From IMG/VR virus record IMGVR_UViG_3300021254_000030: a DNA stretch of 28,643 bases; one strand, 5' to 3'. The notes below the pieces were generated by a model that saw only the letters and a program-made list of their open reading frames with translations, was not told the DNA's origin and did not search any database. This document shows positions 21,495 through 22,568 of this stretch, in pieces; position 1 is the stretch's first letter, and each line of letters starts with the position of its first letter. Position numbers and translations under genes: made by a program. The stretch comes from a virus. Its lineage: Duplodnaviria > Heunggongvirae > Uroviricota > Caudoviricetes.

Positions 21495-21621
21495 CGTATT
21501 TCTCCATTATTTCTAATGGTACTGACTATATCTTACTTAATTTTAAATTAAGGATACCATTTCGAGCTATGTATCAATAATAGCCCTACTCCACCGATTC
21601 GTGGATAGTCGATACAGGTTC

Positions 21622-22377
21622 TTACTTAGTCTGATTTAATTTATTATTTAAAGTTGCATTTCTTTTTCTTAAAGGATATTGCAACTAAGGTTGTTTATAT
21701 CGTTGTCCTCGACATATATTACCTATTGTAGATTTACTACAATTGTATTTTTCTGCTAAATCTTTATATTCAATTAAAGTGTTTTGTAAATCATAAATAA
21801 TTGCTTTGATAGTTTCTTCATCAAATTTAGCATTAGGATTTTTTGTTCCCTATTGAGATAATTTTTCTTTTCTAATAGGATAGTTAACATTAGAATGAAA
21901 ATATCTATTACCTTTATTTATTTCTTCTAATGTTCTTCTACTACAATCATATATTTCAGCTATTTTACAAATTGGATATTCCTATTGATTTAATAAATCA
22001 TATATATCTTGAATATTTTCTTCTGTAAATTTTCCTTGTGGATTATATATTCCCCATAAATTACCACCAGCATTTAAATTATATCCATTTTCTTTTTGAT
22101 TACTATGATATAATTGAACATATTTAAACTCAGCATCTAATAATGCTTGTCGATTATCTGCTGGAATAATTTCTAAAATTTCAAATTCAGGAATACGTCC
22201 GTTAAAATATTTTTGAATTGCAGCATATAATACAGGTTGTCTTTTATCCCAATTATGCTATTTAATTCGCCTTGGAATATTATTACTTAAACCAATATAA
22301 CATTTTCCATTTGGAAAATTAATTTTATATATTCCTGCGACTTTTGGACAATTTAATAAATTAAATACATTATTCAT
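21622..22377 (-). CDS. intron-encoded GIY-YIG homing endonuclease, 251 aa with 4 TAG
   Basis: AGIYKINFPNGKCYIGLS..RRIKXH..FEILE..E..GYNLNAGG, then two repeated HTH-like modules (KF.EE.I..I..L..Y..IAE.Y.CS..T...I..G.RY....YP.RK). TAG at codons 40, 132, 176 and 231; TAA stop. Confidence 0.88.
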
Positions 22378-22383
22378 TTTATA

Positions 22384-22412
22384 AGTCTCCTTTGATTTTT
22401 ATTAAAGAGACT
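22384..22412 (-). promoter_or_regulatory. hairpin occluding the homing endonuclease Shine-Dalgarno
   Basis: Minus strand AGTCTCTTT-loop-AAAGGAGACT pairs over the AAGGAG SD just upstream of the ATG at 22377. Confidence 0.6.
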
Positions 22413-22568
22413 AAGTAAGTTTCCCACGGAATTACCATGTATATACGAAGTCCCTCGTATATATTTAGGCTTCTCCGTTAGCAAATTAAAAAAATTTGTC
22501 CTAAAATAAAATTTTTTTAATTTACCCTGCTGATGAAGCAGAAAAGTATTACACAGGCGTAGTCACAC

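Follow-up and report, generated by a model that had tools for sequence, protein, structure and literature searches.

The window, meaning the whole 28,643-nucleotide stretch of phage DNA analysed here, carries a DNA gyrase A gene in two parts, separated by an insert that has the anatomy of a group I intron and that itself contains the reading frame of a homing endonuclease. The features of the locus are as follows:

22569 to 23072, minus strand: gyrA exon 1 (168 amino acids; PF00521 positions 1–145, E = 1e-61)
19662 to 21494, minus strand: gyrA exon 2 (610 amino acids; PF00521 positions 147–430, followed by PF03989)
21495 to 22568, minus strand: group I intron (1,074 nt, 26% G+C; U before its 5′ end, terminal G at 21495)
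21622 to 22377, minus strand: GIY-YIG homing endonuclease ORF in the P6a loop (251 codons; PF01541 at 31.3 bits, cut-off 22.6)

Between gyrA and gyrB, at 23062–24041 on the minus strand, lie four small back-to-back ORFs of 66–91 amino acids, each with paired, zinc-ribbon-like CxxC motifs.

Exon 1 contains the catalytic-tyrosine motif AAARYTE and ends in ...NPNTGIG; exon 2 begins with VAMACNWAPHNL and encodes the C-terminal β-propeller. Left unspliced, the exon 1 frame (22563–23072, minus strand) would end ...NPNTGIGV at a TGA two codons past the junction, and the exon 2 frame (19662–21488, minus strand) would begin MACNWAPHNL. The last codons of exon 1 are GGA ATT GGT, ending at 22569, so that a U precedes the 5′ splice site, and exon 2 starts with GTT GCC ATG from 21494; the insert, running from 22568 down to 21495, closes with ...AAUACG, its final base being G. 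Only one choice of boundaries gives both a U before the 5′ splice site and an insert terminated by G, namely GGAATTGGT, then gugugacu...aaauacg, then GTTGCCATG. Once the insert is removed, gyrA becomes a stop-free frame of 778 codons that reads ...NTGIG-VAMACNWAPHNL..., and dN/dS against intron-less relatives (exon 1, 0.05; exon 2, 0.16) indicates purifying selection on both exons. The interrupted gyrA looks functional, because the spliced frame is open and dN/dS is low.

The uninterrupted form of the gene is found in related IMG/VR loci, which we retrieved with the exon 2 protein as query (62 loci, 47–85% identity); the window itself comes from a gut metagenome, and bovine gut samples often contain such relatives. 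Throughout this set (62/62), tblastn places the end of exon 1 directly against the start of exon 2, with 0 nt between, and the DNA across this point reads ...GGN GTN GCN ATG GC..., the junction falling between GGN and GTN. A preliminary description of this DNA had put the element at 21495–22568, had claimed for it a U at the 5′ splice site, a terminal G and exact restoration of GIG-VAM..PHNL by splicing, and had proposed a search for intron-less alleles. Its coordinates are exact, with the feature on the minus strand; the U stands at 22569, directly before the insert; the G stands at 21495, where the alignment to a covariance model of the 3′ half of the intron (R1, described below) stops and which coincides with the junction of the 62 intron-less alleles; and the search recovers uninterrupted gyrA joined exactly at the same GIG-VAM junction in all of these relatives.

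A further contig, L061, is interrupted at the gyrA site used in the window, by an insert of 1,239 nt. The glycine codon at the junction is GGT in both insert-bearing alleles and GGC in the closest intron-less relatives, whose exon 1 is 97.6% identical; the exon variants particular to the window phage at the junction are GGT ... GTTGCCATGGCATGC. None of the 62 relatives has an intron of the R1 family inside gyrA, which leaves L061 as the only further case, and in 8 of them (L137, L164, L166, L170, L171, L173, L178 and L179) the R1 model matches upstream of gyrA. L061 itself (4622–5144) holds at least two introns, one upstream of gyrA and one inside it. The gyrB genes of other viral contigs are also interrupted by introns of the same family, at several conserved motifs: after ...SLGSFGIG in L048 and L076, and in TOPRIM after ...FQAVLPLQG in L085. 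In three loci with an intron-less junction (L126, L127 and L166), the match to exon 1 begins only at residue 74–91 (about 2497–2766 of each locus), and the 5′ part of gyrA may there contain a different, non-R1 insertion or a divergent N-terminus.

The insert can be folded into the elements expected of a group I ribozyme, assigned here from the 5′ end of the intron to its 3′ end:

22556 to 22573, minus strand: P1, exon GGU and intron GU(G) with (U)AC-GCC, read from the sequence
22545 to 22549, minus strand: P3 5′ strand AUACU, partner GGUAU at 21554–21558
22481 to 22541, minus strand: two hairpins, A (22527–22541) and B (22481–22525), between the P3 5′ strand and J3/4 (UAA)
22426 to 22478, minus strand: P4 (ACGGAG/UUCCGU) around P5 and the P5a hairpin; P and Q elements, within the match of the 5′ covariance model (R2)
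22409 to 22424, minus strand: P6 5′ strand GG (22423–22424), internal loop and P6a 5′ strand CUUACUUAGUC(U), a 12-bp complement to 21621–21632
21611 to 21632, minus strand: P6a 3′ strand AGACUAAGUAAG, P6 3′ strand CC (21617–21618) and J6/7 UGUAUC
21605 to 21610, minus strand: P7 5′ strand GACUAU, an R-like element
21591 to 21604, minus strand: P7.1, co-varying, between the P7 5′ strand and the P3 3′ strand
21564 to 21586, minus strand: P7.2, co-varying, between the same two strands
21554 to 21558, minus strand: P3 3′ strand GGUAU
21536 to 21552, minus strand: P8, followed by J8/7
21524 to 21529, minus strand: P7 3′ strand AUAGUC
21495 to 21519, minus strand: P9 hairpin CCAUUA-GAAA-UAAUGG (21504–21519) and a 9-nt tail to the terminal G; six of six P9 pairs co-vary

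In P1, the splice-site U is paired with G as a wobble, and exon GGU at 22569–22571 faces GCC at 22556–22558, as the preliminary description had supposed; its R and S elements with a P7 pairing are likewise present, GACUAU pairing with the S-side P7 strand, and the S-like element has the J8/7 consensus AAGAUAUAGUC. The P1 loop sequence GUGAC could also pair with GUUGC of the 3′ exon as P10. J4/5 and J5/4 are A-rich. The P6a helix is formed by CUUACUUAGUCU/AGACUAAGUAAG, with the ORF in its loop.

Comparison across the intron family shows that these helices are maintained by compensatory change. Exon and guide pairs of P1, read by eye, co-vary among insertion sites (GGU/GCC, GAGGU/GCCUC, AGGGU/GCCCU, GCU/GGC and UGGU/GCCA), the middle positions of P3 co-vary at fixed positions (UA/UA, GA/UC, AA/UU and CA/UG) and the 2-bp P6 varies as GG/CC, GC/GC, CG/CG and UG/CA. 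Both helices of hairpins A and B co-vary, as does P5, an A-U pair of the window in the P4–P5 block is G-C in relatives, and P8 is fully compensatory when compared with that of phage EF1. Complementarity in P6a averages 10.5 bp in 33 family introns vs 4.5 bp for mismatched partners. P7 is invariant and hence uninformative for covariation. In the alignment of the 3′ half, pairing holds in 98.4% of cells and both partners have changed in 12 of 23 pairs, values reached in 0 of 500 shuffles, and sliding the partners by 1–3 columns lowers the pairing to about 40%; in the alignment of the 5′ half, pairing holds in 92.3% of cells and both partners have changed in 11 of 21 pairs.

The 5′ domain is not of the textbook kind, because the P3 5′ strand lies upstream of two hairpins instead of directly before J3/4 as in td. 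The family alignment over 22481–22549 (minus strand) has the co-varying P3 5′ strand ahead of the two hairpins and then passes directly to J3/4 and P4. Several other pairings were considered and dropped. Pairing of CGUGG with CCACG as P3 was abandoned when the EF1 counterpart of the 3′ partner proved to be CCCC..GGGG, a local P7.1 hairpin; a P3 of UGCUA/UGGUA beside J3/4 does not hold in VRE9_3 and lacks covariation; CCGUGGG was also dropped as P4; and a helix of CUUUUCUG with CGGAGAAG, taken from a chance match to drz-agam-1, was rejected and competes with P4.

The preliminary description had proposed a search with the Rfam model RF00028 and had held that the lack of a covariance-model match would refute an intron. 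On the window, RF00028 gives no match at its gathering threshold or at E ≤ 10, and the search returned only weak matches to unrelated families. Covariance-model support came nevertheless from models of the family itself, built from relatives that we gathered with a pattern taken from the R/P7–P7.1–P7.2 region of the window, a pattern that matched more than 117 viral contigs; 25 sequences went into R1, which represents the 3′ half, and 20 into R2, which represents the 5′ half, and the window was excluded from both. Each model has one significant match in the 28.6-kb window, R1 at 21495–21624 (139.4 bits, E = 4e-28; full model, ending on the terminal G) and R2 at 22417–22557 (79.4 bits, E = 9e-20), the agreement in the 21-nt pattern block being given by construction and the rest of each model being independent of it. 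The two matches flank the endonuclease ORF in the correct order. We take the RF00028 miss as a failure of sensitivity, because the family models match both halves and because L118, one of the contigs matched by the pattern, carries an ORF-less 238-nt intron that is colinear with both halves of the window intron and passes RF00028 (60 bits, threshold 50, E = 1e-12). What hides the window intron from RF00028 is, in our view, the ORF insert of 800 nt together with peripheral hairpins rich in AU.

The same family models also recognize the T4 td intron, in which their matches flank I-TevI (41.8 bits, E = 2e-7, and 16.2 bits, E = 0.009), and the T4 nrdB intron in its 3′ half. In blastn, the stretch that follows the ORF (21494–21624) is 76–78% identical to sequences adjoining GIY-YIG genes in the Enterococcus phages EF1, EF5 and VRE9_3, and the 5′ part of the intron has no matches among phage records. 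Together with the presence of P7.1 and P7.2, the model matches to T4 td and nrdB support assignment of the insert to the group I introns of the T4 td type, subgroup IA2. VRE9_3 has in addition a second, different group I intron that adjoins an HNH endonuclease gene (L001 129–373, minus strand) and scores 31.5 bits with RF00028, below the threshold, which makes it another example of phage introns under-called by Rfam.

Under the standard code, the gene strand of the insert has no ORF of at least 40 codons. The 251-codon frame holds four TAG codons (22258–22260, 21982–21984, 21850–21852 and 21685–21687; residues 40, 132, 176 and 231) and zero TAA or TGA, and is open only with TAG as sense. The preliminary description had set an endonuclease ORF between Q and R, as I-TevI lies in td; the position stands, whereas the frame is not open under the standard code, the four TAG codons having been overlooked. 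A AAAGGAGA sequence lies 8 nt upstream of the ATG, and the TAA stop falls within the 3′ strand of P6a. A hairpin at 22384–22412, calculated at −8.7 kcal/mol (z = −1.56, not significant), suggests that the Shine–Dalgarno sequence may be sequestered.

The product belongs to the GIY-YIG homing endonucleases, with matches to the I-TevI catalytic domain (1MK0, E = 3e-4) and to phrog_7168, ‘homing endonuclease’ (E = 3e-20). The catalytic domain is N-terminal, and in its alignment to 1MK0 GIY, YIG and NGYN are retained, as are Arg and His of RxxxH; the Glu can be read by eye in DAEFKY. DNA binding falls to a separate C-terminal module, with HTH_7 at residues 118–150 (30 bits, cut-off 23.8) and, further on, a weaker HTH at about 189–226.

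Full-length products of several other genes in the window also require TAG as a sense codon: DnaB (5 TAG, all within the N-terminal domain), RecJ (3), AAA_24 (2) and a GH25-CHAP-GW endolysin (9). PolIII-alpha, ligase, gyrA and gyrB have zero in-frame TAG. The genes that bear TAG are:

6281 to 8041, minus strand: TAG-bearing gene
10012 to 11610, minus strand: TAG-bearing gene
12385 to 13368, minus strand: TAG-bearing gene
14518 to 15378, minus strand: TAG-bearing gene
15378 to 16346, minus strand: TAG-bearing gene, a second GIY-YIG gene
26155 to 27627, minus strand: TAG-bearing gene

An unnamed ORF with 2 TAG likewise becomes full-length only by read-through of TAG. The second GIY-YIG gene is apparently free-standing, has its catalytic domain at the C-terminus (residues 229–312) and is unusually dense in TAG (16 of 322 codons). 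The 28.6-kb window contains no suppressor tRNA, nor any tRNA at all. Intron endonucleases on other contigs bear TAG as well, twice at the conserved YIG-Q position, and among residues opposite TAG in 31 related endonucleases, Q is enriched 3.2-fold (the highest) and E 2-fold. Judged from its coding sequences, the phage uses TAG as a sense codon, in the manner of code 15, and the amino acid inserted is probably Gln. The intron endonuclease is probably intact, because TAG is sense in other genes of the window, the domain matches span the TAG positions and Q is enriched opposite TAG.

RNA was surveyed as contigs from four metatranscriptome runs aligned at 90% identity, in which the exons are almost uncovered. 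No contig bridges exon 1 and exon 2 in these runs, a result that, at such coverage of the exons, says nothing either way, and a 238-nt RNA contig breaks off precisely at 21494, its 5 unmatched letters not being enough to identify a junction. In a contig from the RNA library of run X15, only 12 other letters separate 21622 from 22418, so that this intron also circulates in bovine gut samples in a form that lacks the ORF. Another RNA contig, of 993 nt, lies wholly within the intron (21545–22536).

Very likely, then, a mobile group I intron of the T4 td type has lodged in gyrA, carrying a GIY-YIG homing endonuclease. The gyrA transcript would fold into a core of P3–P8 and P4–P6 domains, and an external guanosine bound in P7 would attack after the U at 22569, which forms a pair with G within P1. 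The external guanosine would then give way to the terminal G at 21495 and the exons would be joined, giving the uninterrupted 778-codon gyrA. The four TAG codons of the endonuclease would be translated as an amino acid, probably Gln, because the phage uses TAG as sense. The I-TevI-like enzyme would cut intron-less gyrA alleles of co-infecting relatives, and repair of the cut allele would copy the intron in; candidate targets are the intron-less junctions, such as those of L121 and L151, and I-TevI itself cuts upstream of its insertion site. We regard the element as a genuine and probably active mobile group I intron: its anatomy, its kinship with a large co-varying intron family, the exact restoration of gyrA and the family of its endonuclease are established from sequence, and catalysis, homing and the residue at TAG are predicted.

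If the insert were instead a non-splicing endonuclease cassette, it would have split gyrA into two separately translated polypeptides that assemble into a working subunit, one of 169 amino acids ending in GIGV and a stop, the other of 608 amino acids starting with MACNW. Endonuclease-split nrdA genes in some T4-like phages do behave as two-polypeptide split genes, and several aspects of the locus would suit such an arrangement: the TGA that exon 1 meets two codons past the junction, an in-frame ATG for exon 2 at 21488 with GGAGA 12 nt upstream, and RNA contigs in which no spliced RNA was seen, with the exons almost uncovered. That ATG, however, encodes the Met of VAMACNW, which every intron-less relative conserves, and the GGAGA falls in the 3′ strand of P9 and its tail and lacks conservation among related introns. 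Two separate polypeptides would also leave a complete, co-varying ribozyme core with exact U and G boundaries without a role, and we regard this explanation as highly improbable.

Alternatively, the ribozyme might still splice while the element has become immobile, its endonuclease gene decaying and its TAG codons acting as real stops. Read with the standard code, the four in-frame TAG do end the product at residue 39; defective intron endonucleases exist, such as I-TevIII, annotated as defective in T4; and the ORF-less variant among the RNA-library contigs (joint 21622 to 22418) would fit a loss of the gene. Yet a decaying gene does not sit easily with 251 codons at 26% G+C that lack TAA and TGA, with endonuclease domain matches that run across the TAG positions, or with the requirement for TAG as sense in other genes of the window. 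Related endonucleases bear TAG too, at YIG-Q in two cases, with the enrichment of Q opposite TAG given above, and decay seems to us unlikely.

The mobile td-type intron that we favour resembles T4 td and I-TevI (IA2) in its order of 5′ core, GIY-YIG ORF in the P6a loop and 3′ core, in having both P7.1 and P7.2, in its near-identical R and S elements, in the match of the family models to both td halves and in the match of its endonuclease to the I-TevI catalytic domain. It differs in its host gene, gyrA instead of thymidylate synthase; in its P3 5′ strand, which precedes two hairpins, whereas P3 in td follows P2 and abuts J3/4; in its P9, a single GAAA hairpin without a long 3′ extension; and in the four TAG sense codons of its endonuclease. 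With the introns of EF1, EF5 and VRE9_3 it shares a 3′ core that is 76–78% identical over about 130 nt and matching 5′ P4/Q blocks, and the differences in P4, P6a, P7.1, P7.2, P8 and P9 are compensatory. Unlike the window phage, these three use the standard code and have no TAG in the endonuclease, and their host genes and host bacteria differ; their records list nothing beyond hypothetical proteins and a homing endonuclease, and no intron.

As with the GyrA inteins of mycobacteria, a selfish element sits in gyrA and would be removed to give a working subunit. Those inteins are in frame, are removed at the protein level and occupy a different gyrA site, whereas the insert in the window closes the frame immediately past the junction and contains a ribozyme core. 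A recoded intron endonuclease has a precedent in the TGA-recoded ‘Agate’ gut phages, in which an early gene carries a group I intron endonuclease with in-frame recoded stops, proposed to delay the endonuclease until late infection (Borges et al., bioRxiv 10.1101/2021.08.26.457843). The intron endonuclease of the window likewise carries in-frame recoded stops, the reassigned codon being TAG, not TGA. A ‘late-only’ gate is not evident in the window phage, because TAG is also found in replication genes (DnaB and RecJ).

Literature searches on group I introns with phage gyrase or stop-codon recoding, and term look-ups in a 2014 review of bacterial group I introns, did not turn up any such intron described in gyrase. 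The preliminary description had known of none in gyrA; that statement agrees with these searches, and its novelty is weakened by the classic type of the element and by the recoded intron endonuclease already published. Standard gene finders and the default Rfam threshold both miss the window intron, and phage genomes of this kind would consequently be annotated with two gyrA fragments and without the endonuclease. As the mechanism is classic, the gain is in annotation and in the cataloguing of intron diversity and not in a new principle: DNA gyrase A joins the DNA-metabolism genes invaded by phage group I introns, and the endonuclease would be a homing endonuclease written in the reassigned code of its phage. 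A wider proposal, that gyrA and gyrB of this rumen phage clade form an undescribed hot spot of td-like introns with a rearranged 5′ domain and, jointly, that in TAG-reassigned phages the making of the intron endonuclease, and with it homing, depends on TAG decoding by the phage, is tentative and on balance doubtful; if it held, the spread of a selfish element would be tied to a switch of the genetic code.
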